DNA of 64,000 nucleotides from an uncultured Actinomycetota bacterium (GCA_963762015.1 CAVXJL010000013.1:27709-91708), one strand, 5' to 3'; shown: positions 3,242 through 37,818, numbered from the stretch's first letter. Notes: generated by a model not told the origin, from the letters alone. Made by a program: numbers and translations.

Positions 3242-4335
3242 AGCGGGTCCACCTCGATCGGCTCGCGCGAGCGGCCGAGGAGACCGCGAGCCGGGGGCTC
3301 GACGCGCTCGTCGTGTCGCCCTCGCGCGACCTCGCGTACCTGACCGGCTACGACCCGATGCCGCTCCCACGTCCGACCCTTCTCGTGGTCCGCCCGAACC
3401 GCGACCCCGTCATGCTGGTCCCCGAGCTCGAGCGGGCCCTCGCGGCAGCCTCCCCTGTGGCGGAGCACCTCGAGCTGGTGACTTGGCGAGACGGGTCCGA
3501 CCCGTACGGGGTTGCCGCGAGCCTGCTCAGCGGCGCCGAGCGGATCGCCGTCGCGGATCGTCTGTGGGCGACCCATCTCCTCGGCCTCCAGCGCGAGCTG
3601 CCCGGCGCCGCGTTCTCGCCGGCCTCCCCGGTGATGGTCCGCCTCCGCGCGGTGAAGGACGAGCACGAGCTCGGGGCACTCCGGCGCGCCGGACGTGCCG
3701 CCGACGAGACCTTCCGCCAGATCGTCTCGATGTCGTTCCAGGGCCGCAGCGAGGAGGACGTCGCTCACGACCTCGCGGAGCTGCTCGTCCGGAACGGACA
3801 CGATCGCGCCGACTTCACGATCGTGGCGAGCGGGCCCAACGGAGCCTCCCCACATCACGAACCTGGGGGCCGGACGATCCTGCCTCGCGACGCGGTCGTG
3901 ATGGACTTCGGTGGCGAGGTGGGGGGCTACTTCAGCGACACGACAAGAACCGTGGTGGTCACCGAGCCACCCGAGGGCTTCGAGCACGCCTACGCGGCCG
4001 TCCAGGAGGCGCAGGCGGCCGCCGTCGACGCCGTGCAACCCGGACTCGAGGCCCAGGAGGTCGATCGAGCCGCTCGGTCGATCATCGACGCCGCCGGGTA
4101 CGGCGAGCGATTCATCCATCGGACGGGCCACGGCATCGGCCTCGACCTGCACGAACCCCCGTACATGGTGGAGGGCGACCGGACGGTCCTGGAGCACGGG
4201 ATGACATTCTCCGTGGAGCCGGGCGTCTATCTCGAAGGGCGCTTCGGCATCCGGATCGAGGACATCGTCGCGGTGACCGCGGACGGGGTCGAGCGGCTCA
4301 ACCGGAGCACGCGCGAGCTCCAGATCGTGTCTTGA
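3238..4335 (+). CDS. M24 family Xaa-Pro aminopeptidase/dipeptidase
   Basis: Creatinase-like N-domain plus pita-bread catalytic domain; metal ligands in HRTGHGIGLDLHEPP and ...SVEPGVY...IRIEDIV; 4-nt overlap with the upstream gene. Confidence 0.8.
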   Translation: MKRVHLDRLARAAEETASRGLDALVVSPSRDLAYLTGYDPMPLPRPTLLVVRPNRDPVMLVPELERALAAASPVAEHLELVTWRDGSDPYGVAASLLSGAERIAVADRLWATHLLGLQRELPGAAFSPASPVMVRLRAVKDEHELGALRRAGRAADETFRQIVSMSFQGRSEEDVAHDLAELLVRNGHDRADFTIVASGPNGASPHHEPGGRTILPRDAVVMDFGGEVGGYFSDTTRTVVVTEPPEGFEHAYAAVQEAQAAAVDAVQPGLEAQEVDRAARSIIDAAGYGERFIHRTGHGIGLDLHEPPYMVEGDRTVLEHGMTFSVEPGVYLEGRFGIRIEDIVAVTADGVERLNRSTRELQIVS

Positions 4336-4423
4336 CCACCCAGACCGACCTCAGGTGATCCTGGCGGCCGAGTGGTGCGAACCGAAGGGGTGAGGGGTAC
4401 ATGATGCCGATGGGGGTTTCGCC

Positions 4424-5314
4424 GTGACGAGGGACGAGATCATGAAGATGGACACGTCGGAATTCGACCTGGACAAGTACCTCCGAGCGTCCACGCGCGT
4501 CGACCTGTCCGCGGTCGACTGGGGCCGGATCGGGCAGCATCCGGTCTCGGCCGACGAGGCTCGGTGCCTCGCATACATGATGGACATCGAGACCCACACC
4601 GTCGTGTTCCTCCGTGATCTCCTCGCGACCCGTGCCTCGTTCGACCCCGAGGTCACTTCGTTCCTCTCCTGCTGGGGCTACGAGGAGCTTTGGCACGGGG
4701 AGGCATTCAGCCGATTCCTCGGGGAGGCCGGCTACCGTCTCCATCCCTCCTACGAAGACGTCGCGGGAGACGACCCGTTCCCCACTCGCTTCGACCGCAA
4801 CCAGTGGATCAGACGCAAGTTCGGGACGAAGGGCTACGTCTCGCACATGGGGACGCTGCTCGGGTCGGCGCTGTTCCGCGACTTCGTCGCGGTGCACATG
4901 ACGTGGGGAGCGGTGAACGAGCTGGGGACGCTGACGGGCTATCACCGCATCATCGCGAAGACCGAGCATCCCGTCCTGATCCAGCTCCTCCAGGCGATCA
5001 TCAAGGACGAGCGGCGGCACTTCGCGTTCTACCGGGCCCAGGCGAAGATGCGCCTCGCCCGGTCGAAGCAGGCCCGGACGATCACACGGTGGGCGCTCGA
5101 GCATCTCTGGGCCCCCGTCGGCACGGGCGTCAGGCCTCAGCACGAGACCGACTTCGTGATCCATTCCCTGTTCGGCGACGCCGACGGCCTGGTCGCGGTC
5201 AAGGAGATGGAGCACACGCTCGGTGACCTGCCGGGGCTGCAGGGGAGCAGCTTCCTCTCCGATGCGCTCCAGGCGGCCGCCCGGCGTCTGGGCAGGCCTC
5301 TCGGCGTCGGCTGA
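4424..5314 (+). CDS. ferritin-like diiron-carboxylate protein (acyl-ACP-desaturase-like)
   Basis: Two (D/E)ExxH motifs (YEELWHGE, DERRHFAF) spaced as in diiron four-helix-bundle oxidases/desaturases; 296 aa. Confidence 0.5.
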   Translation: MTRDEIMKMDTSEFDLDKYLRASTRVDLSAVDWGRIGQHPVSADEARCLAYMMDIETHTVVFLRDLLATRASFDPEVTSFLSCWGYEELWHGEAFSRFLGEAGYRLHPSYEDVAGDDPFPTRFDRNQWIRRKFGTKGYVSHMGTLLGSALFRDFVAVHMTWGAVNELGTLTGYHRIIAKTEHPVLIQLLQAIIKDERRHFAFYRAQAKMRLARSKQARTITRWALEHLWAPVGTGVRPQHETDFVIHSLFGDADGLVAVKEMEHTLGDLPGLQGSSFLSDALQAAARRLGRPLGVG

Positions 5315-16445: not shown

Positions 16446-18803
<2,358 letters not shown>

Positions 18804-18865
18804 AGGAGGCCACTCGCAAAGCCACCGTGAGACGAGTTCGCTCAGCCGTCCGGCTCGTCGTGCCC

Positions 18866-18893
18866 CTTCCCGATAACGTACATTATGTCACCT
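18866..18893. other. dif-like XerC/XerD chromosome-dimer resolution site
   Basis: CTTCCCGATAA-CGTACA-TTATGTCACCT. The core ATAACGTACATTATGTCA matches E. coli dif ATAATGTATATTATGTTA at 15/18 positions with the 11-6-11 arm/spacer layout. xerD lies ~30 kb away. Confidence 0.55.
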
Positions 18894-19169
18894 TGTCGGG
18901 AAGAGGGCCTCATGACTCTCGCGGACTCTCCCCTCCCTCCCGATCCAAGCTCGGGTCTTGGGCGGTCCCGGGGCGTTCTTGCTTCGGGGCAACGCGGATG
19001 CAAAGCTCGCCTTCGGCCCTGGAGAGAGGGACGTTCGGCGGAAGGCTTCCTTCTTTCGACCGATGTTCCCCTCCCCCGGCACTCGTAGGGTGTGTGGGTC
19101 AACCGGCCGATGGATGGACCGACGCGGATGACCGACCCGCCATGCGTGAGGCGGGACCCAGGAGGGGAC

Positions 19170-20804
19170 ATGAAGAGAGCGAAGCACCGGTCCGGCGCCC
19201 GACGGGGACTCGTTCTCGGGTCGATCATCGTGGCGATGCTGGCAGTGGGACAGGCCGGCATGGTGTTCGCGGGTGCCGTTCCACCGGTCGACTCCCCCGA
19301 GCCTGCGCCGGTAGACAACGCGCAGCCGTCGGTCGGAGTCGTGGAGCCGGTCATCCTCGATACCCGGTCCTCGAACGACGACGACGCCTCCGCCGTGGAG
19401 ACCAGCGACCAACTCCCCCCTGAGATCACCGACCCTGTCCCTCCAGAGGTCACCGATCAACTCTCCGAAGAGGTCACGTCCGTCGATCCGGAAGCCGGCT
19501 GTGGGGAGGACGTCGATCCGGTGACGTGCGACCCGGATGAGACCGACGCCGGCGAGAACATCCCGGTCCACGTCACCGAGGCGGTAGACGAGCCGACCCC
19601 GCCCGATCTGCAGGTCTCGAAGACCTCCGATGCGGACGGGATCCTCCAGGACGGCGACGACTTGCTGTACACGATCATCGTGACCAACGCGGGCGACGAG
19701 GAAGCGACGGGCGTCGAGCTCGTCGACATCCTGCCGCCGGGTGCGCAGGGCGTCACCTTCCCACCGTTCCCGACACTCGCCGGCAAGGCATGCATCGCCA
19801 CCAGCTCCGTGATGCCCGGCGGCGTGCCCCACGCGGAGGTCCGCTGTGGCCGGGTGTCCCTCGATCCGGGCGAGTCGGCAACCGTCACGGTGCGGGTCAT
19901 CATCGACAGCACCTATTGCGGTTCGATCACCAACGTCGTGGACGTCGAAGGCAGGAACGAGCCCGGGGTCAACGTCGGGGATGACAACCACGCCGAAACC
20001 ACAGACGAGGTCGCGTGCGTGCCGAGGATCCGGTTGTCCAAGGGCGGACCTTCGTTCGCGCATGTGGGCGACACGATCACGTATGTGTTGACCGCGAGGA
20101 ACAACGGAAGTGCCCGACTCACGAACATCGACCTTTCCGATCCGGGATGCGACTCGTCCCCCACGCTCGTCGACGACGGGAACGGCAACTCGACCTTGGG
20201 GGTCGGCGAGGTTTGGCGCTTCGAGTGCGACCACACCGTCACATCCTCGGACGGCAACGTCGTCCACAACGTGGCGACGGTCACCGGCGATCATGGGGGT
20301 GAAACCGTCAGGGACACGAACGCCCATGACGTCGACGTGATCCACCCGAGCATCGATCTCGAGAAGTCCGCGACCCCGACCTCCGGTCCGGCCGGCACGC
20401 TCATCGTTTACACCTACATCGTCACGAACACCGGAGACACCCCCCTGTTCGACATCTCCGTGTCCGACGACAAGCTGGGGGACGTGGGTGTCATCGCGAC
20501 GCTCGCGGTAGGAGCGACGGCGGAGCTCACCTCCCAGATCACGCTGGGCTCCTCCCCCATCACCAACGTCGCCACGGCCACGGGCGAGGACCGTCTCGGG
20601 AGAGCTGTCGATGACACGGACTCTGCCTCGGTCACCGTGGTGGCCGGCACAGGCGGTGGAGCCGGCGGCGATGGGACCGGCAGCGGCGGGAGCCCGTTCA
20701 CCGGATCGGACACGGACGGGCTCGCTGCGTGGATCGTGATCCTCGCCGCGGTGGGGTCGGTGCTCCTCCTCACCTCGCGAAGGCGATCGCAAGCGCGCGC
20801 CTAG
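19170..20804 (+). CDS. DUF11-repeat cell-surface protein 1 (signal peptide; C-terminal [ST]PFTG sorting-signal-like motif + TM + basic tail)
   Basis: ATG behind GGAGGGG RBS. Signal peptide MKRAKHRSGARRGLVLGSIIVAMLAVGQA. Repeated ...TYTI.VTNTG... DUF11 modules. C-terminus GSPFTGSDTDGLAAWIVILAAVGSVLLLTSRRRSQARA. Confidence 0.75.
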   Translation: MKRAKHRSGARRGLVLGSIIVAMLAVGQAGMVFAGAVPPVDSPEPAPVDNAQPSVGVVEPVILDTRSSNDDDASAVETSDQLPPEITDPVPPEVTDQLSEEVTSVDPEAGCGEDVDPVTCDPDETDAGENIPVHVTEAVDEPTPPDLQVSKTSDADGILQDGDDLLYTIIVTNAGDEEATGVELVDILPPGAQGVTFPPFPTLAGKACIATSSVMPGGVPHAEVRCGRVSLDPGESATVTVRVIIDSTYCGSITNVVDVEGRNEPGVNVGDDNHAETTDEVACVPRIRLSKGGPSFAHVGDTITYVLTARNNGSARLTNIDLSDPGCDSSPTLVDDGNGNSTLGVGEVWRFECDHTVTSSDGNVVHNVATVTGDHGGETVRDTNAHDVDVIHPSIDLEKSATPTSGPAGTLIVYTYIVTNTGDTPLFDISVSDDKLGDVGVIATLAVGATAELTSQITLGSSPITNVATATGEDRLGRAVDDTDSASVTVVAGTGGGAGGDGTGSGGSPFTGSDTDGLAAWIVILAAVGSVLLLTSRRRSQARA

Positions 20805-20832
20805 CGGGTCCTCACGGACGACCTGAGCACGG

Positions 20833-20862
20833 AGCGGGCCCCTCGGAGGCCCGTTTCGATCT
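20833..20862 (+). terminator. hairpin terminator after DUF11 gene 1
   Basis: CGGGCC-cctcgga-GGCCCG followed by TTTCG. Confidence 0.4.
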
Positions 20863-20888
20863 CTTCTCCCCACCAGCAGGTTTCTGTC

Positions 20889-20917
20889 TTGTGCATTCGG
20901 GGAACTTGCTTCACAAT
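20889..20917 (+). promoter_or_regulatory. putative promoter of DUF11 gene 2 (-35 TTGTGC, 17-bp spacer, -10 CACAAT)
   Basis: The same -35/17/-10 arrangement recurs upstream of gene 3 (23704-23732). Confidence 0.45.
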
Positions 20918-21090
20918 CGGGCTCCTCCGAACGGACTACGCACGTCGGTCCGGATGGAGTCTGGCCATTCGCCCGATGGTCTCCCCCGGGTGAGGAGGAT
21001 ACCGTCGGGCGGAAGGACCTCGTTCTACGCCGTAGGACGTGGGCCCCGTTGATAGTCGATCGACACATGAGATCACCTGGGGAGGTAGAG
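20918..21090 (+). promoter_or_regulatory. conserved ~170-nt 5' leader of DUF11 gene 2 (candidate cis-regulatory RNA)
   Basis: Blocks CCGAACGGACTAC, GGCCATTCGCCCGATGgTcTCCCCCGGGtGAGG, CCGTAGGaCGtGGGCC and GGGGAGGTA (RBS). All are shared with the gene-3 leader and partly with gene 1. Confidence 0.45.
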
Positions 21091-23532
21091 ATGAGAACCA
21101 GAACCGACATGGGACGGGGCCGGCGCGGCAAGCGAGGGCTCGCGTCCTTCGTATCGTTCCTGCTCCTGTTCGCGTTCGCGCTCGGAAGCAGTTCATTGGT
21201 CGCGCTGGCGGACAACGGCGGCGCGAAGGGGAACAAGAAGGCTGTCTCGAGTGATGAGACGCTACCCGTGGCCGAAGCACCGGCCGACGAAGCCCCCGCA
21301 GAGGAAGCTCCGGCCGAGGAAGCTCCCGTAGAAGAGGCTCCGGCCGAGGAAGCTCCGGCCGAGGAAGCTTCCGTAGAAGACACCGACGCGGGAGCCTCCA
21401 CCGAGGGCACCACGCCCACGGGCCGAGCCGCACCCAAGGCCAGCCAGTTCAAGACCGCGAGCGCAGGCCGCGGCGCCGGGATCCTGAGCCACGGTGGACT
21501 CCACGGCGGTGATGTCTCGCTCGACTTCGTCGCAGCCGGACCGTTCACCTACGACCACAGCACCGGCCTGGGCACGCACCCCCAGTTCGGATACGACAAC
21601 CGCACCATCAGTAAGACGAACGGGGTCGTGGAGTCGCTGGAAAGCGGCGACTTCGAGTGCGGTGATCTCGTGACCTTCTTCGTGCAGGTCGTGATCGCTG
21701 AGGATGCAGAAGGCAGCGGCACCGTCGAGCTCGACTTGTCGTTCGGCGCCGAGACCACGGGCCAGCCCGGCCTCGGCTTCGACAACATCGTCAGCTACGG
21801 GATCAACACCCCCGACGACGGCAATGTCGGGAACGTGGGCGACAACGTCGTGACCGCCAGCCCGCCCAACGGGGCCATCGAGACCTCGGGCTACGACGAA
21901 TTGAAGGCGACCCTCACGGTGACCAACCTCGCCCCCGGTGAGACCGCCATCGTTCGAGTGACGGTCCACCTCGAATGCGAGGTCGGGGCCAGCCCGACCG
22001 GCAACATCCTCAATTCGATCGAGGCTGCCCGCGCGGACGGCGAGAGGATCTCCGTCGGACAGCAGACCGTTCCGATGAAGCAGGTCGGTGGGATCGACGC
22101 AGCGCCCGCGATCGATGTCACCAAGGACTGCCCCGCGGCGGTGGGTGCCGGCGAGGAGATCACGTACGAGATCACGGTGACGAACACCGGGAACGTGGAA
22201 CTGACCAACATCACGGTCGTCGACGACATCATCGGCGATCTATCGGGTGAGTTCCCGGACACCCTCGCCGTGGGATCCGATCCCGTCACGGTGGAGGTGC
22301 AGTACACGCCGGCGCCGGCGGACGGCGACCCCGTCACGAACACGGTCACCGCGACCGGCGACTGGGACGCTGGCGAGACCAGCGATTCCGTGTCGGACAC
22401 CGCCGAGTGCACCACGGACATCACCCACGAGCCCGGGATCCTGGTCGTCAAGGAATGCCCAGAGTCGGTGCCGTTCGGTGAGGACGTGACCTTCACGATC
22501 ACCGTCACGAACACCGGCAACGAGGCCCTCGAGAACGTCCTCGTGACGGACGAGCTCCTCGGTGGGGACATCACCGCGGACTTCGACTTCGCGGATCCGT
22601 TCCCGGTGGGCGGCGAAGAGTCAGCCGAGTTCACGTACACGCCGGGACCGAACGAGGACCCGGTGGAGAACTCCGTCACCGCTTCGGGCGACGGTGTGGA
22701 CTCCGAGGTCACCGCGACCTCTACGGACGACTGTGACACCGACGTCATCCACGCACCGGCGATCGAGGTCACCAAGGCCTGTCCGGCTCTGGTGGCATCC
22801 GGTGAGGACGTGACCTTCACGATCACCGTCACGAACACCGGTAACGAGGACCTCGGGAACGTTTCCGTGACGGACGAGCTCCTCGGCGGGAACATCACCG
22901 ATGCCTTCGGATTCGGGGAGACGTTCGCGGCCGGAGCCGAGGTATCCGCCCAGTTCACCTACACACCAGGGGCGGACGAAGATCCCGTGGAGAACTCCGT
23001 CACCGCTTCGGGCGTCGGGGTGCACTCCGAGATCACGGTGACGTCTACGGACGTGTGTGTCACCGATGTCTCGAACCCGGCCATCCAGATCGTGAAGACG
23101 GTCAGCGAAGAGATCGTCCCCGTGGGAACCACGGTGACCTACACCTACGTCATCACGAACACCGGCGACGTGACGCTGTACGACATCAGTGTCGATGACG
23201 ACATCATGGGGCACATCGGGGACATCCCCGTCCTCGAGCCCGGGGTCTCCGTGACCCTCACGAAGGACTTCGTGGTGGGCGACGAACCCGTCCTCAATGT
23301 CGGCACGGCCGTGGGCGAGGACATCCTCGGCCGGGTCGTGAGCGACGACGACGACGCGTTCGTCAGTCCGATCGCCGGCGAGAACCCGCCGAACCCCCCG
23401 AACAACCCCCCGACGCCCTTCACGGGCTCGGACGCGGGCCGGCTCGGGCTCATCACCCTGATCCTGGCCGGGATCGGCGTGACCGTGGTCGCGTCGACCC
23501 GCAGGCGCCGGCCTGAGCGGGAGGCCGCATAA
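21091..23532 (+). CDS. DUF11-repeat cell-surface protein 2 (signal peptide, Ala/Glu/Pro-rich linker, DUF11 repeats, TPFTG sorting-signal-like C-terminus)
   Basis: ATG after GGGGAGGTAGAG. (AEEAP)n low-complexity stretch. Repeated ...VTFTITVTNTGNE... modules. C-terminus NPPNPPNNPPTPFTGSDAGRLGLITLILAGIGVTVVASTRRRRPEREAA. Confidence 0.8.
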   Translation: MRTRTDMGRGRRGKRGLASFVSFLLLFAFALGSSSLVALADNGGAKGNKKAVSSDETLPVAEAPADEAPAEEAPAEEAPVEEAPAEEAPAEEASVEDTDAGASTEGTTPTGRAAPKASQFKTASAGRGAGILSHGGLHGGDVSLDFVAAGPFTYDHSTGLGTHPQFGYDNRTISKTNGVVESLESGDFECGDLVTFFVQVVIAEDAEGSGTVELDLSFGAETTGQPGLGFDNIVSYGINTPDDGNVGNVGDNVVTASPPNGAIETSGYDELKATLTVTNLAPGETAIVRVTVHLECEVGASPTGNILNSIEAARADGERISVGQQTVPMKQVGGIDAAPAIDVTKDCPAAVGAGEEITYEITVTNTGNVELTNITVVDDIIGDLSGEFPDTLAVGSDPVTVEVQYTPAPADGDPVTNTVTATGDWDAGETSDSVSDTAECTTDITHEPGILVVKECPESVPFGEDVTFTITVTNTGNEALENVLVTDELLGGDITADFDFADPFPVGGEESAEFTYTPGPNEDPVENSVTASGDGVDSEVTATSTDDCDTDVIHAPAIEVTKACPALVASGEDVTFTITVTNTGNEDLGNVSVTDELLGGNITDAFGFGETFAAGAEVSAQFTYTPGADEDPVENSVTASGVGVHSEITVTSTDVCVTDVSNPAIQIVKTVSEEIVPVGTTVTYTYVITNTGDVTLYDISVDDDIMGHIGDIPVLEPGVSVTLTKDFVVGDEPVLNVGTAVGEDILGRVVSDDDDAFVSPIAGENPPNPPNNPPTPFTGSDAGRLGLITLILAGIGVTVVASTRRRRPEREAA

Positions 23533-23553
23533 ACACCCGAGAAGCGCGAGCAT

Positions 23554-23590
23554 GGGGCGGGGTCCGAAAGGGACCCCGCCCCTCCCGTTT
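23554..23590 (+). terminator. strong hairpin terminator after DUF11 gene 2
   Basis: GGGGCGGGGTCC-gaaa-GGACCCCGCCCC (12-bp stem, GNRA loop) followed by a T-containing tail. Confidence 0.55.
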
Positions 23591-23703
23591 CTCCCCCAAG
23601 AGACCCCACAGTGGTGGCGAAGGGGAACGCTCAGGCCTCCGTCCAAGCACGTCCACTCGATGGATCCGTCGATCCGTGCTCGTTTTCCACCAGATCTCTA
23701 GTA

Positions 23704-23732
23704 TTGCGCAATCCGGATACTTCCTCCACAAT
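23704..23732 (+). promoter_or_regulatory. putative promoter of DUF11 gene 3 (-35 TTGCGC, 17-bp spacer, -10 CACAAT)
   Basis: Same architecture as the gene-2 promoter. Confidence 0.45.
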
Positions 23733-23907
23733 CGATGTCACCCGAACGGACTACTTCGTCCGCCAGGAACAGTCGGGCCATTCGCCCGATGCTGTCCCCC
23801 GGGCGAGGGATATAGCGTTCGGTAGGCGGACCACGCTCTTCACCGTAGGGCGGGGGCCGCATCTATCGGTCAAGTGAAGCGCACCACACCAGTTGGGGAG
23901 GTACGGG
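23733..23907 (+). promoter_or_regulatory. conserved ~175-nt 5' leader of DUF11 gene 3 (candidate cis-regulatory RNA)
   Basis: Contains CCGAACGGACTAC, GGCCATTCGCCCGATGcTgTCCCCCGGGcGAGG, CCGTAGGgCGgGGGCC and GGGGAGGTA. Confidence 0.45.
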
Positions 23908-26900
23908 ATGGGAACCAGATCCAATGGGGGGCGTAGTCGCGGCACCAAGCGGGGACTCGCTTCGTTCGTATCGTTCGTTGTGCTGTTCGCGCTCGCGCTC
24001 GGACAGGGCAGCTCGTTGATCGCGTTGGCGGACGACGCCAGCCGCAGCACGGCACTTCCGTCGGCGCAGCCGACCGGTGCGGCTCCGTCCACCGACCAAG
24101 TCAGTGGCGACACAGGGACCTCGTCTGACGACGGGGCTTCCACGACGTCTCGGACAGCGCCCAAGGTCAGCCAGCGGAACACCGCAGCCGCTGGACGCAC
24201 CGGTGCGCTTGCGGCCCCCCCGAGCTCCGGGTTCGACGGCGGGGACATCAGCCTCGACTTCGTCGCGGCCGGTCCCTTCACGTACAACCACGACACGGGA
24301 GTCGGCGGCGCCTACAACAACCGTACGATCAGCAAGACGACGGGTGTCGTGGAGTCGCTGGAGGGCGGCGACTTCGAATGCGGTGACCTCGTGGTGTTCT
24401 TCACGCAGGTCGTCGTCGACAACGGCGCGACCGGCACTGGAAGCATCGACATCGACTACGCGTTCGGCGCGGAGACGACCGGCCAGCCGGGGATCGGCTT
24501 CGACGACATCGTGAGCGTCAGCGTGAACACCAGCGACTCGGGCAATGTTGGCCTGGAAGGCACCGAGACGGCCACGCTCATCGCCGAAGGCACCGGAACG
24601 ATCGGTGGCAGCGACGCGGTCACCGGCACCGTTCGGGTCACCGGGCTCAACGCCGGCGAGCACTTGATCGTCCGCACGGTCGTGCATCTCGGGTGCGATG
24701 TCGGCGCCTCTCCGACCGGCAACATCCAGAGTGCGGTTCCTGCCGCAAGGGTTGTCCTGCCGGAGGCGGACACGATCTCCGTCGGCAACCAGACGATCCC
24801 GTTCAAGAAGGTCGAGGACGTCGCGCAGCCGGGCATGAACGTCACCAAGACGTGTCCTGCGTTCTCTCAGGTCGGCGACGTCATCACCTACAGCATCTCG
24901 ATCCAGAACACGGGCAACGAGACACTCAACATCACGAGCGTCGTGGACACGGTGAACGGCCACAGTCCCGTGAACATCACGGCCTCGTTCCCGGCAACGG
25001 TCGCGGCCGGAGCCACGGTCACCAGGACCTACGAGTACACGGTGGTGGCCGCCGATCCGGATCCGCTGCCGAACTCGGTGACGGTGACGGCCAAGGGAGC
25101 CGTCTCGCAAGTGACGCTGACCGGATCCTCGTCCTGTGAGACCGACATCCTCAACCCCGACATCAAGGTCACCAAGACCTGCACGGACTTCGCGCAGGTC
25201 GGTGACGTGATCACCTACACGATCACGGTCGAGAACACCGGGGACGAGACCCTGAACGGCGTGACCGTGATGGACTCCTTGCTCGGGAACCTGTCGGGCT
25301 CCTACGACGACGTGTTCTCCCCAGGCGAAGAGGAATCGCACGACTTCACCTACACGGTCACCGAGAACAGCCCGGACCCGGTCCCGAACACGGTGACCGC
25401 CTCGGGCACGGGTGCCACCTCCAACGACACCGTGACCGACACGGCGTCGTGCTCCACCGACATCCTCAACCCCGACATCAAGGTCACGAAGACCTGCACG
25501 GACTTCGCGCAGGTCGGTGACGTGATCACCTACACGATCACCGTCACGAACACGGGTGATGAGGACTCTCGAGGGCATGACCGTCGATGACACGCTGCTC
25601 GGCGACCTCTCGGACGACTTCGCCGACACGTTGGCGGCCGGTGACTCGGAGTCCCACGACTTCGACTACCTGGTCACCGAGGACAGCCCGGACCCGGTCC
25701 CGAACTCGGTGACCGCGACGGGCACGGGCGTGACCTCGGAAGAGATCGTGGATGACACGGCGCGGATGCTCGACGGAGATCCTCAACCCCGACATCGATG
25801 TCACGAAGACCTGCACGGACTTCGCGCAGGTCGGTGACACGATCACCTACACGATCACCGTCACCAACACGGGTGATGAGGATCTCGAGGGCATCACCGT
25901 CGATGACACGCTGCTCGGCGACCTCTCGGACGACTTCGCCGACACCTTGGCGGCCGGTGACTCGGAGTCCCACGACTTCGACTACCTGGTCACCGAGGAC
26001 AGCCCGGACCCGGTCCCGAACTCGGTGACCGCGACGGGCACGGGCGTGACCTCGGAAGAGGTCGTGGATGACACGGCCGGATGCTCGACGGAGATCCTCA
26101 ACCCCGACATCGATGTCACGAAGACCTGCACGGACTTCGCGCAGGTCGGTGACACGATCACCTACACGATCACCGTCACCAACACGGGTGATGAGGATCT
26201 CGAGGGCATCACCGTCGATGACACGCTGCTCGGCGACCTCTCGGACGACTTCGCCGACACCTTGGCGGCCGGTGACTCGGAGTCCCACGACTTCGACTAC
26301 CTGGTCACCGAGGACAGCCCGGACCCGGTCCCGAACTCGGTGACCGCGACGGGCACGGGCGTGACCTCGGAAGAGGTCGTGGATGACACGGCCGGATGCT
26401 CGACGGAGATCCTCAACCCCGACATCGATGTCACGAAGACCTGCACGGACTTCGCGCAGGTCGGTGACACGATCACCTACACGATCACCGTCACCAACAC
26501 GGGTGATGAGGATCTCGAGGGCATCACCGTCGATGACACGCTGCTCGGCGACCTCTCGGACGACTTCGCCGACACCTTGGCGGCCGGTGACTCGGAGTCC
26601 CACGACTTCGACTACCTGGTCACCGAGGACAGCCCGGACCCGGTCCCGAACTCGGTGACCGCGACGGGCACGGGCGTGACCTCGGAAGAGGTCGTGGATG
26701 ACACGGCCGGATGCTCGACGGAGATCCTCAACCCCGACATCACGGTGACCAAGTCGTGCCCCGAGTCGGCGACGGTGGGTGACACGATCACCTACACGAT
26801 CACCGTGACCAACACGGGTGATGAGGATCTCGAGGGCATCACGGTCGAGGACTCGTTGCTCGGCGACCTCTCAGACTCCTTCGCGGACACGCTCGATGTG

Positions 26901-27836
26901 GAGGAATCGGAGTCGCACGACTTCACCTACACGGTTACCGCCCAGAGCCCGGACCCGGTCCCGAACACCGTGACCGCTTCGGGCACGGGAGTGACCTCGG
27001 AAGACACCGTGACCAACACCACGTCGTGCTCCACGGACGTGCTCTTCCCGGCGATCAACATCGTCAAGGACGGGCCGGCCCTCGTGCACCGGGGCGACAC
27101 GATCACCTACACGTTCGAGGTCACCAACCCCGGTGAGGTCGAGCTGTTCGACGTCGAGCTCTCCGACCCGATCTGCGACGAAGGCACGATCGAGCCCGGT
27201 GAGGACGTGGACTCCAGCCTGGCGGTCGGCGAGGTGTGGCACTTCACGTGCCTGCACCTGGTCACCGACGAGGACCCGGACCCGATCCCGAACACCGGGA
27301 CCGTCCGTGGCGACACGGAGGAGGGCGAGGGTGGCGAAGAGGTCGAGGACAGCGATGACCACCTGGTGGACATCATCAACCCCGGCATCGACATCCTGAA
27401 GACCGTCGACGAGGAGATCGTCCCGATCGGTACCACCGTGACGTTTACCTACGTCGTTACCAACACCGGCGACACCACGCTGTATGAGATCAGCGTCGAC
27501 GACGACATCCTGGGTCACATCGGGGACATCGCCGTCCTCGAGCCGGGGGACTCCGCCACGCTGACCAAGGACTTCGTGGTTGGTGACGAGATCGTCACCA
27601 ACGTCGGCACCGCGACGGGCGAGGACGTCCTCGGTCGCTCGGTGAGCGCCGATGACGACGCCACCGTCACTCCGATCGCCGGTGAGAACCCGCCGAACCC
27701 GCCGAACAACCCCCCGACGCCCTTCACGGGCTCGGACGCGGGCCGCCTGGGCCTCATCACGATCGTCCTGTTCGGGATCGGCGTGACCGTGGTCGCGTCG
27801 ACCCGCAGGCGCCGGCCGGAGCGTGAGGCCGCGTAA
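23908..27836 (+). pseudogene. DUF11-repeat cell-surface protein 3 (~1300 aa if corrected); two +1 frameshifts at ~25568 and ~25757 inside a tandem-repeat array
   Basis: Signal peptide and N-terminal domain homologous to gene 2. Reading continues in frame 2 (25556-25837) and frame 0 (25752-27836). The C-terminal ~150 aa and TPFTG+TM+RRRR tail are almost identical to gene 2. Confidence 0.7.
25132..27021 (+). repeat. tandem array of ~6 x 315-bp units (each one 105-aa DUF11 module); 3-4 central copies essentially identical
   Basis: Unit CSTEILNPDIDVTKTCTDFAQVGDTITYTITVTNTGDEDLEGITVDDTLLGDLSDDFADTLAAGDSESHDFDYLVTEDSPDPVPNSVTATGTGVTSEEVVDDTAG repeats with period 315 bp (e.g. 26077, 26392, 26707). 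Flanking copies are diverged. Confidence 0.85.
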
Positions 27837-27853: not shown

Positions 27854-27900
27854 GGAAAGGGGGCGGGATCCCAACCGGGATCCCGCCCCTTTCCTTCTCT
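27854..27900 (+). terminator. hairpin terminator after DUF11 gene 3
   Basis: GGAAAGGGGGCGGGATCCC-aacc-GGGATCCCGCCCCTTTCC followed by TTCTCTT. Confidence 0.5.
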
Positions 27901-27915
27901 TACCGGGTCAGACCC

Positions 27916-28368
27916 TCATCCGACGAAGATCATCGTGACCCACAGGAACCCATCCTGGGCGTAAAGCCCGACCCCGACCCGGCGGTAGCCGCGTCCGAGG
28001 ATGTTGTCTCGGTGCGCGTCGCTCCTCATGAATGCGTCGAACAGCCCGCGCATGCTTCCTCCGGCCCCGACATTCTCCCCCGCCACGCTCCAGGACACGA
28101 ACGTGAGCCTGGACCCCAGGGAAGCCGTGTGGAAGATCCGACCGGCGTTGGCCATCTGCCTGCTGTGCTCGTTCGCCATCTTCCGGAGTCGCCATCCCGG
28201 ATCCAGGCTCACCGCTCCACGCGTACTCCGAGCCGAGTTCACCCACCCGAGCATGTCGAGACGGGGCGTCCAGGTGGCATGTGCGCTGGGCGCGACTGCT
28301 CCCAGCACCACGGAGAGGGCGAGGGTGAGCCCCAAGACCTTGATGGTCTTGACCAGACCTCGTCTCAT
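27916..28368 (-). CDS. secreted CAP-domain (SCP/PR-1/YkwD-like) protein, paralog 1
   Basis: ATG behind AAGGAGG RBS. Signal peptide MRRGLVKTIKVLGLTLALSVVLGAVAPSAHA. CAP motifs ...HS.QMAN.GRIFH... and HRDNIL...GVG. Confidence 0.7.
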   Translation of the reverse strand: MRRGLVKTIKVLGLTLALSVVLGAVAPSAHATWTPRLDMLGWVNSARSTRGAVSLDPGWRLRKMANEHSRQMANAGRIFHTASLGSRLTFVSWSVAGENVGAGGSMRGLFDAFMRSDAHRDNILGRGYRRVGVGLYAQDGFLWVTMIFVG

Positions 28369-37741: not shown

Positions 37742-37818
37742 GGTCGGGCCGGCCGGATTCGAACCGGCGACCTTCTGACCCCCAGTCAGACGCGCTAACC
37801 AAGCTGCGCCACGGCCCG
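37742..37818 (-). tRNA. tRNA-Pro (anticodon GGG)
   Basis: Cloverleaf folds by hand: acceptor CGGGCCG/CGGCCCG, D-arm GCGC/GCGC, anticodon stem TCTGA/TCAGA with loop CTGGGGG (U33, GGG), T-arm GCCGG-TTCGAAT-CCGGC, discriminator A. Confidence 0.85.

Follow-up and report, generated by a model that had tools for sequence, protein, structure and literature searches.

A conserved 5′ leader of about 170 nucleotides as a probable gene-control element of tandem surface-protein genes in uncultured soil Actinomycetota

The leader of about 170 nt that precedes tandem surface-protein genes in a lineage of uncultured soil Actinomycetota is, judging from its sequence, probably a new gene-control element. It is conserved in related genomes, is under purifying selection, is linked to one gene family, and contains neither a known RNA family nor a terminator. 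The reading we prefer, with a probability of roughly 0.4, is that of a lineage-specific cis-regulatory mRNA leader, the invariant blocks of which would be read in a sequence-specific manner by a trans-acting factor controlling translation or mRNA stability. In this reading, we infer where transcription starts, that the leader acts as RNA, and that a trans factor exists.

Organization of the locus

The window (the whole stretch of 64,000 nt analyzed here) consists of high-GC DNA and carries three co-oriented secreted repeat-protein genes in tandem. These are gene 1 (19170-20804, + strand, ATG at 19170), gene 2 (21091-23532, +), which encodes a secreted DUF7507/DUF11 ("CLIPPER") repeat protein of 813 amino acids with a C-terminal PFTG-type anchor motif, and gene 3 (23908-27836, +), a paralogue of gene 2 with 315-nt tandem repeats, broken by two +1 indels. 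The products of all three genes contain DUF7507 and DUF11 domains, and at their C terminus a hydrophobic tail follows a PFTG-type motif. Pfam now calls the DUF11/DUF7507 domains "CLIPPER", and a 2025 survey describes them as domains with intramolecular isopeptide bonds (PMC12617251); proteins of this kind are predicted to be isopeptide-stabilised surface proteins (PMC12617251). Genes 2 and 3 are each preceded, in this order, by a GC-rich hairpin ending the prior gene, TTG(T/C)GC and CACAAT separated by 17 nt, about 170 nt of untranslated sequence, GGGGAGGTA and ATG.

Several other features of the locus were recorded. In gene 3, six tandem repeats of 315/316 nt occupy 25131-27007, and three of the six are 100% identical (25763-26692). 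Its frame is interrupted by two single-base insertions within the repeats, near 25567 and 25762 (GAGGAcTCTCG and GGCgCGG); the orthologue in L001 is a single intact ORF of 1186 amino acids. The broken frame is either that of a pseudogene or an assembly error. In gene 2, 15-nt tandem repeats at 21265-21407 encode a low-complexity linker of the (P/V)AEEA type after the signal peptide. An extra terminator-like hairpin (ATGGATCCGTCGATCCGT followed by GCTCGTTTTC, 23660-23677) lies between the terminator hairpin of gene 2 (about 23553-23586) and the promoter of gene 3. An antisense ORF of 886 amino acids (18888-21548, -) covers the leader of gene 2 as well as gene 1. It is of the spurious type common in high-GC DNA and is unlikely to be coding because of the non-triplet indels in the leader.

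Promoter-like element upstream of the leaders

The sequence-only reading of this region had claimed an identical promoter architecture for genes 2 and 3, and the sequence confirmed it. The promoter-like element P1 of gene 2 (20889-20917, +) has TTGTGC at -35 (20889-20894), a 17-nt spacer and CACAAT at -10 (20912-20917), all within a longer conserved box, GTTTCTGTCTTG(T/C)GCAAT. The element of gene 3 (23704-23732, +) has TTGCGC (23704-23709), a 17-nt spacer and CACAAT (23727-23732). The element is kept in most first copies of the leader across other genomes, and this conservation supports the putative promoter.

Actinobacterial sigma-A-type promoters can carry a TANNNT -10 element. The region studied here resembles them in the correct spacing of CACAAT from TTG(C/T)GC and in an invariant internal TANNNT. 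It differs from them in that the upstream element is a weak match, with 7 of 12 positions agreeing with the Escherichia coli consensus, and falls below the threshold of a promoter scan based on that consensus, and in that the internal TANNNT has no -35 partner. Other promoter classes, namely ECF sigma (GAAC...CGTC), sigma-28/WhiG (GCCGATAA), SigF/SigB (GGGTA) and sigma-54, were rejected by eye on account of spacing and non-conserved partners.

Eight leader copies lack the upstream promoter. Each of them lies 10-60 nt behind the GC-rich hairpin of a co-oriented paralogue and retains the leader from exactly the predicted transcription start onward. By the T-run criterion, the hairpins ahead of these copies do not qualify as terminators, which makes read-through into the promoterless copies plausible. 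Leaders of the L015-type group have intact blocks behind upstream -35 and -10 elements that look decayed.

Blocks shared by the leaders of genes 2 and 3

The leader of gene 2 begins at the predicted transcription start and ends immediately before ATG (20920-21090, +), and that of gene 3 occupies 23735-23907 (+). A covariance model matched them at 20920-21096 (122.8 bits) and 23735-23913 (165 bits), respectively. Each block that had been listed as common to the two leaders was found at its position. Block B1 (CCGAACGGACTAC; 20927-20939 in gene 2 and 23742-23754 in gene 3, +), of which CGGACTAC is unchanged across the 36 aligned leaders, is the 5′ arm of a predicted 5′-terminal hairpin, also labeled P1 (about 20924-20959). 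Block B2 (GGCCATTCGCCCGATG; 20963-20978 in gene 2 and 23776-23791 in gene 3, +) includes the invariant TTCGCCCGATG. Exact occurrences of B1 and B2 in the 64 kb searched were only those in the leaders of genes 2 and 3, and near-matches were at chance level.

The hairpin-prone module P2 (20969-21012, +) follows, in which CGCCCGATGGT pairs with ACCGTCGGGCG around the invariant TCCCCC (20982-20987; 23795-23800 in gene 3) and the G-rich arm GGAGGA. The gene 2 block TCCCCCGGG starts at 20982. The pairing of CGCCCGA with TCGGGCG that had been proposed for the gene 2 leader is present in its minimum-free-energy fold. The hexamer TANNNT (TACCGT at 21000-21005 in gene 2 and TAGCGT at 23813-23818 in gene 3, +) is invariant in all 36 leaders except at its N positions and lies 20-22 nt after GATG; TACCGT can be read as the 3′ arm of P2 or as an internal -10 element.

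Module P3 (21016-21052, +) comprises GGACCTC (GGACCAC in other genomes), GTTCTACG, CCGTAGGACG (block B6, 21030-21039) and TGGGCCCCG. Its CCGTAGG stands at 21030-21036 in gene 2 and at 23843-23849 in gene 3, where GGACCAC (23828-23834, +) and B6, in the form CCGTAGGGCG (23843-23852, +), were also found. Block B7 (GTTGATAG, 21048-21055, +) reads GTCCAT(A/C)GG in most genomes and is complementary to the start-codon region AUG(G/A)G. The Shine-Dalgarno sequence GGGGAGGTA and ATG of gene 2 occupy 21079-21093 (+), with the former at 21079-21087 and the latter at 21091; in gene 3, they are at 23896-23904 (+) and 23908.

Between genes 2 and 3, identity was 70% in the leader, 73-77% in the first 135 nt of the coding sequence, 77-80% in other parts of the coding sequence, and 57% upstream of the -35 element. 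The earlier argument that the coding 5′ ends had diverged more than the blocks is thus unsupported overall (70% for the leader versus 73-77% for the start of the coding sequence). Only the hand-picked blocks exceed the coding sequence in conservation, and the argument reflects the choice of blocks. The case that the leader is more than a leftover of paralogy rests on other genomes and not on the two copies in the window.

Conservation in related genomes

The leader is present in about 25 related metagenome-assembled genomes of uncultured soil Actinomycetota, of which 18 are species representatives. A scan with an exact two-block pattern, with one genome per species, gave 18 Actinomycetota genomes together with 13 chance matches in unrelated taxa, where the remaining blocks were missing. 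A three-block pattern gave 9 further copies in metagenome contigs. Additional, more divergent copies were recovered with an HMM and the covariance model, and syntenic contigs hold leaders at the same places. Homologues of the N-terminal domain come from assemblies of uncultured "Actinomycetota bacterium". All true copies of the leader lie directly 5′ of the same protein family (DUF11/DUF7507), and a near-identical signal peptide is encoded by all leader-linked genes except the L012-type subgroup and one other gene. No leader of this kind precedes a more distantly related protein homologue (L052/L053).

In 36 non-redundant leaders, those of the divergent L012-type subgroup among them, CGGACTAC, TTCGCCCGATG, CCCC, T-A-N-N-N-T, GGAC(C), CGTAGG-CG and the T of CAT(A/C)GG are invariant or nearly so. 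The sequence between the blocks is largely randomized, with spacers near saturation. The spacing of the blocks is almost fixed (26-30, 20-22, 7-12 and 8 nt), and their orientation and distance to ATG are fixed. Conservation sets in at the predicted transcription start and extends to the ribosome site. Mean information was 1.32 bits per column in the leader, compared with 1.13 at codon position 3, 1.40 at codon position 1, and 0.46 upstream of the promoter. The leader is under purifying selection, as shown by an information content above that of third codon positions and by blocks that stay invariant between diverged spacers. Selection on the leader, as claimed earlier, is thus borne out by the related genomes, with their invariant blocks and diverged spacers, and not by the identities between genes 2 and 3. 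Conservation in related genomes had been named as a check and was found, so that refutation by lack of conservation falls.

A few other explanations of the copies were considered. Whole contigs L003 and L005 are mirror-image palindromes, with their genes repeated in inverted order about the center, and look like foldback artefacts of long-read assembly; the minus-strand copies of the leader in them are therefore non-independent. This artefact accounts for the inverted copies in the two contigs, and a mobile element or invertible switch was rejected for this reason. A leader peptide or upstream ORF on either strand was rejected because the internal ATG lacks conservation and because spacers vary by 1-2 nt (26-30, 20-22 and 7-12) in a non-triplet manner. 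A weak covariance-model match at 27869-28004 (-) was rejected as a leader; the sequence there is the terminator that separates gene 3 from its convergent neighbor.

Tests of RNA structure

Single-sequence folding gave z scores of -2.2 for the gene 2 leader and -0.6 for the gene 3 leader, and the two folds differ. With RNAalifold on MAFFT alignments of 36 or 32 leaders, the consensus energy was -0.5 to -7, compared with a mean single-sequence energy of -80 kcal/mol, and the structure conservation index was about 0.1 overall and about 0 for each sub-region. RNAalifold yielded a structure only with Ribosum scoring, and that structure failed covariation counts. We also built by hand a structure with three modules: P1, the 5′ hairpin; P2, around the C-rich block; and P3, around CCGTAGG. 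For the Ribosum consensus and the hand-built structure, 75-78% of the cells were paired, versus 73-77% when partners were shuffled within columns. Pairs changed on both sides numbered 6-9, versus 6-6.6 in shuffles, which is no covariation beyond chance at an effective sequence number of 2.55. Many of the genomes are closely related and, at this number, the covariation tests have low power; several assemblies also have indel errors. Re-alignment to a covariance model (R1) of the hand-built structure still gave no covariation above shuffles. Minority variants broke pairs about three times as often as they kept them, and A-C mismatches were more frequent than G-U wobbles, the opposite of what a helix in the sense strand would lead one to expect. 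The sole convincing covarying pair joins GATG[G/C]T with TA[C/G]C (24 G-C, 10 C-G and 2 others) and is probably a single event within one clade.

Stability of the modules was patchy. Against dinucleotide shuffles, P2 had a mean z of -1.9, going down to -5.4, and P3 had about -2.3, going down to -6.2, and in whole subfamilies one of the two modules had z near 0. For example, z for P2 was -4.7 in gene 2 and about -0.6 in the L015-type subfamily. In the L012-type subgroup, the blocks are retained but the helices are not the same. CGCC(C) of B2 meets a downstream (G)GGCG at varying distances in four architectural subtypes. In a natural deletion variant, L045:4318-4459, the spacer between B1 and B2 is gone, leaving a perfect CCGAACG/CGUUCGG hairpin.

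The stretch before the Shine-Dalgarno sequence was less structured than shuffles (mean z +0.6). The Shine-Dalgarno sequence itself was unpaired with a probability of 0.33, versus 0.32 with shuffled upstream sequence, and its predicted partner differs between genomes. The idea of an anti-Shine-Dalgarno element was rejected on these grounds. There was no terminator-like site within 20920-21090 or 23735-23907.

In an unbiased scan of all column pairs, the top anti-diagonal stack was GUCCAU (B7) against AUGGG, with 98.3% of the cells paired, versus 41-59% when the partner was slid. Variation in B7 consists entirely of C/U or A/G changes that keep the pairing, and between B7 and the start codon a series of C-G, U-G and U-A is seen in the clade where the second codon changed from GGN to AGA. 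In addition, UCCCCC is complementary to the GGGG(A/G)GG Shine-Dalgarno sequence and to the local G-rich arm. Neither UCCCCC:Shine-Dalgarno nor GUCCAU:AUGGG is favored in predicted ensembles. The GUCCAU:AUGGG helix, which is also short, may be treated as a lead rather than a finding.

The covariation-supported structure that had been named as a check was thus not seen at the depth reached (2.55 effective sequences). The suggestion of a riboswitch or RNA thermometer is left unsupported by the conservation index, the lack of excess covariation, the 3:1 ratio of breaking variants, the control-level accessibility of the Shine-Dalgarno sequence, and the lack of a terminator.

Search for known RNAs

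At gathering thresholds, Rfam 15 matched only a tRNA-Pro in the window. Rfam scans at E values up to 10 of 18000-25000 and 7 homologous loci gave no match on any leader, and the Rfam thermometer families had no match on the leaders. The statement that the leader matches no family was therefore upheld by thresholded and permissive scans alike. A literature search for DUF11 together with an RNA motif found nothing relevant. The tRNA-Pro (anticodon GGG; 37742-37818, -) is the sole RNA gene found by Rfam or ARAGORN in the window.

How the leader may act

In the mRNA-leader reading that we prefer, transcription would start about 7 nt after the conserved CACAAT. The resulting leader of about 170 nt would carry some 60 invariant nucleotides at near-fixed spacing (CGGACUAC, UUCGCCCGAUG, UCCCCC, UANNNU, GGACCAC, CCGUAGGGCG and GUCCAU), set on the three hairpin-prone modules P1 to P3. 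The blocks would be recognized by their sequence and not through a conserved fold. A trans-acting factor, either an RNA-binding protein or a small RNA, would then set translation initiation, mRNA stability or both for all paralogues jointly. UCCCCC and GUCCAU, as complements of the Shine-Dalgarno sequence and AUGGG, respectively, are possible mediators. This reading is favored by the position of B5-B7, which fall in transcribed sequence under either start-site model, and by the promoterless copies behind co-oriented paralogues, which keep the leader from the predicted start. The fixed orientation and distance to ATG, the high stability of P2 and P3 in many members, the B1/B2 hairpin of the L045 deletion variant, the varying-distance partners of CGCC(C), the pairing of B7 with AUGGG, and a stretch ahead of the Shine-Dalgarno sequence with less structure than shuffles also speak for it. 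It is disfavored by the structural results, that is, covariation no higher than in shuffles, an index of about 0.1, mostly pair-breaking minority variants, subfamily-dependent hairpin stability, the differing helices of the L012-type subgroup, and Shine-Dalgarno accessibility equal to controls. Rigid spacing without covariation and the invariant TANNNT fit a DNA-level reading equally well.

Such a DNA-level reading, which we regard as possible and on balance doubtful, takes the region as a composite regulatory region with the blocks as operator or activator sites. TANNNT (21000-21005 and 23813-23818) would be an internal -10 element, B2 (TTCGCCCGATG) would span about -44 to -34, B1 would lie near -70, and TTGCGC/CACAAT would be a tandem promoter. 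The hexamer with its near-constant distance from GATG in 36 of 36 leaders points in this direction, as do the analogous CCGATG-N20/21-TAGGGT in gene-1-type leaders, the recurrence of GGAC/GTCC half-sites, and the rigid spacing, with blocks conserved on one "arm" without compensation, as protein-DNA architecture gives. Moreover, all 8 promoterless copies keep TANNNT, two subtypes without TANNNT (L003:7538 and L035:3105) keep the upstream promoter, and the L015-type group keeps its blocks next to decayed-looking -35 and -10 elements. However, there is no -35-like hexamer 16-19 nt from TANNNT, where TGGTGT stands instead, and about 40 invariant nucleotides downstream of the internal start (GGACCAC, CCGTAGGGCG and GTCCAT) need another explanation. 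The TANNNT pattern would also be expected from pairing with the invariant GAUG(G/C)U, with C or U facing G at the second N and a first N that covaries as G-C/C-G in 34 of 36 leaders. The promoterless copies are always behind a co-oriented paralogue and could be reached by read-through, since the hairpins before them fall below the terminator T-run criterion.

The remaining readings are less probable. A metabolite riboswitch or RNA thermometer, with an aptamer or a Shine-Dalgarno-masking helix shifting with ligand or temperature, is improbable. A long conserved leader with many invariant nucleotides, the dual complementarity of UCCCCC, the strong stability of P2 and P3 in some members, and one G-C/C-G covarying pair (24/10/2) would suit it. 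Against it are the mostly disruptive variation, with neither a conserved consensus structure nor covariation above shuffles, Shine-Dalgarno masking no greater than in controls, the lack of a leader terminator and of any Rfam match at E values up to 10, putative stem and loop lengths that barely vary, and downstream genes that are surface adhesin-like and not metabolic or transport genes. We consider about as improbable a processive-antitermination or recruitment module like ops/RfaH, LoaP, put or EAR, in which an elongation factor would read the blocks on the non-template DNA strand or the nascent RNA and let the polymerase cross long repeats and inter-paralogue hairpins. The element does lie in the leaders of long (2.4-4 kb) tandem surface-protein genes separated by hairpins, its sequence is conserved without covariation, and GCCGTAGGGCGTG in B6 loosely resembles ops, GGCGGTAGCGTG (PMC5995543). 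The resemblance is partial, though: the ops base G4, essential for RfaH, is C here, some 60 invariant nucleotides stand against the 12 nt of ops, and no NusG paralogue was seen in Pfam domain lists of the syntenic neighborhoods. RfaH, moreover, belongs to Proteobacteria. Least credible is that the leader has no function of its own and that its identity is the residue of recent duplication, gene conversion and genome kinship. In its favor, the 70% identity of the leader in the window is not better than the 73-80% of the coding sequence, and many of the genomes are closely related (2.55 effective sequences). This would leave unexplained blocks that are 100% identical in 36 leaders, divergent L012-type leaders included, beside nearly saturated spacers, a leader information content above that of third codon positions and far above that upstream of the promoter, and the preserved spacing.

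Protein- or small RNA-controlled mRNA leaders in bacteria include CsrA-bound leaders with repeated GGA sites and the autoregulatory leaders of ribosomal proteins. The leader studied here is like these in its long 5′ UTR, in its invariant short motifs (including a repeated CGGAC(U/C)AC and one motif near the ribosome site), in its presumed control of translation or stability, and in being common to what would be a co-regulated gene set. It differs in that the binding protein is putative, in the lack of a match to any Rfam leader, and in its uncultured lineage. With riboswitches and RNA thermometers it has in common the 5′ UTR position, many conserved nucleotides, and a C-rich segment complementary to the Shine-Dalgarno sequence; it differs from them in having no conserved or covarying structure, no detected expression platform, and no family match. 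The ops/JUMPStart leaders of RfaH (PMC5995543) are likewise conserved elements in the transcribed leaders of long surface-structure genes, with the sequence kept and not the fold, but the present element is far larger, comes from another phylum, does not conserve G4, and has no NusG paralogue seen nearby. The ops element is GGCGGTAGnnTG, with G4, G5, A7 and G8 essential (PMC5995543). In B6, GCCGTAGGGCGTG fails this test, with C at the G4 equivalent and a 2-nt insertion before (C/T)G.

A more far-reaching version of a sequence-read element is unlikely. This would be a new control module coupling tandem giant adhesin-like genes, either as a protein-bound RNA with GUCCAU:AUGGG and UCCCCC:Shine-Dalgarno as switchable contacts or as an ops-like antitermination platform for the inter-paralogue hairpins. 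If true, no such element would have been described before it, either for CLIPPER/DUF11 surface proteins or for this lineage of uncultured soil Actinomycetota. CLIPPER proteins are abundant in never-cultured soil Actinomycetota, and a dedicated leader of about 170 nt before every paralogue in at least 18 species-level genomes implies a common and specific control circuit for surface proteins. Should the leader be linked to a factor or signal, it would open a way to study the timing of surface remodeling and would add a leader family missing from current RNA-family libraries. The analysis also carries a caution that strong conservation of blocks in a leader is by itself no evidence of a riboswitch.

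Gene 1 leader and divergent leader variants

Gene 1 had been described as having a leader of about 275 nt before its ATG at 19170 that partly shares the blocks, and CCGATG...TCCCCCGG and CGTAGGG were indeed found there. The gene 1 leader (18867-19169, +) belongs to a separate conserved family; its resemblance to the other two is limited to the core CCGATG-N20/21-TA(GGG)T with TCCCCC and to CCGTAGGGTGTGGG (19059-19108). The core common to this leader and those of genes 2 and 3 is thus CCGATG, TCCCCC and CCGTAGGGTGTGGG. The family is found in at least 15 genomes and has an invariant box, CCCGATAACGTNCATTATGTCAC. In the window, a terminator-like hairpin at 18955-18974 is followed by the conserved CGTTCTTGCTTCG...GCGAAGCTC, and the gene 1 leader may be an attenuator in its own right.

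Divergent or hybrid copies also occur. The L045 variant in which the spacer between B1 and B2 is deleted (4318-4459, -) is a hybrid, with a gene-1-like 3′ half. L003:7538-7717 (+) and L035:3105-3230 (+) keep the promoter, B1 and GGTGTCCCCC, and have no TANNNT, GGACCAC or CCGTAGG. Upstream of the more distant homologue and adjoining tatA/tatC, L052:5700-6000, on which an Rfam scan gave no match, has TTGACC and TACCGT separated by 17 nt, followed by a leader in which CCGGTAGGGGTGCGGTAGGGGG occurs and a clear terminator-like sequence, CCGACCGCACCGGCGGTCGGTTTTTTT, stands some 170 nt ahead of ATG. This region could be an attenuator or a small RNA.
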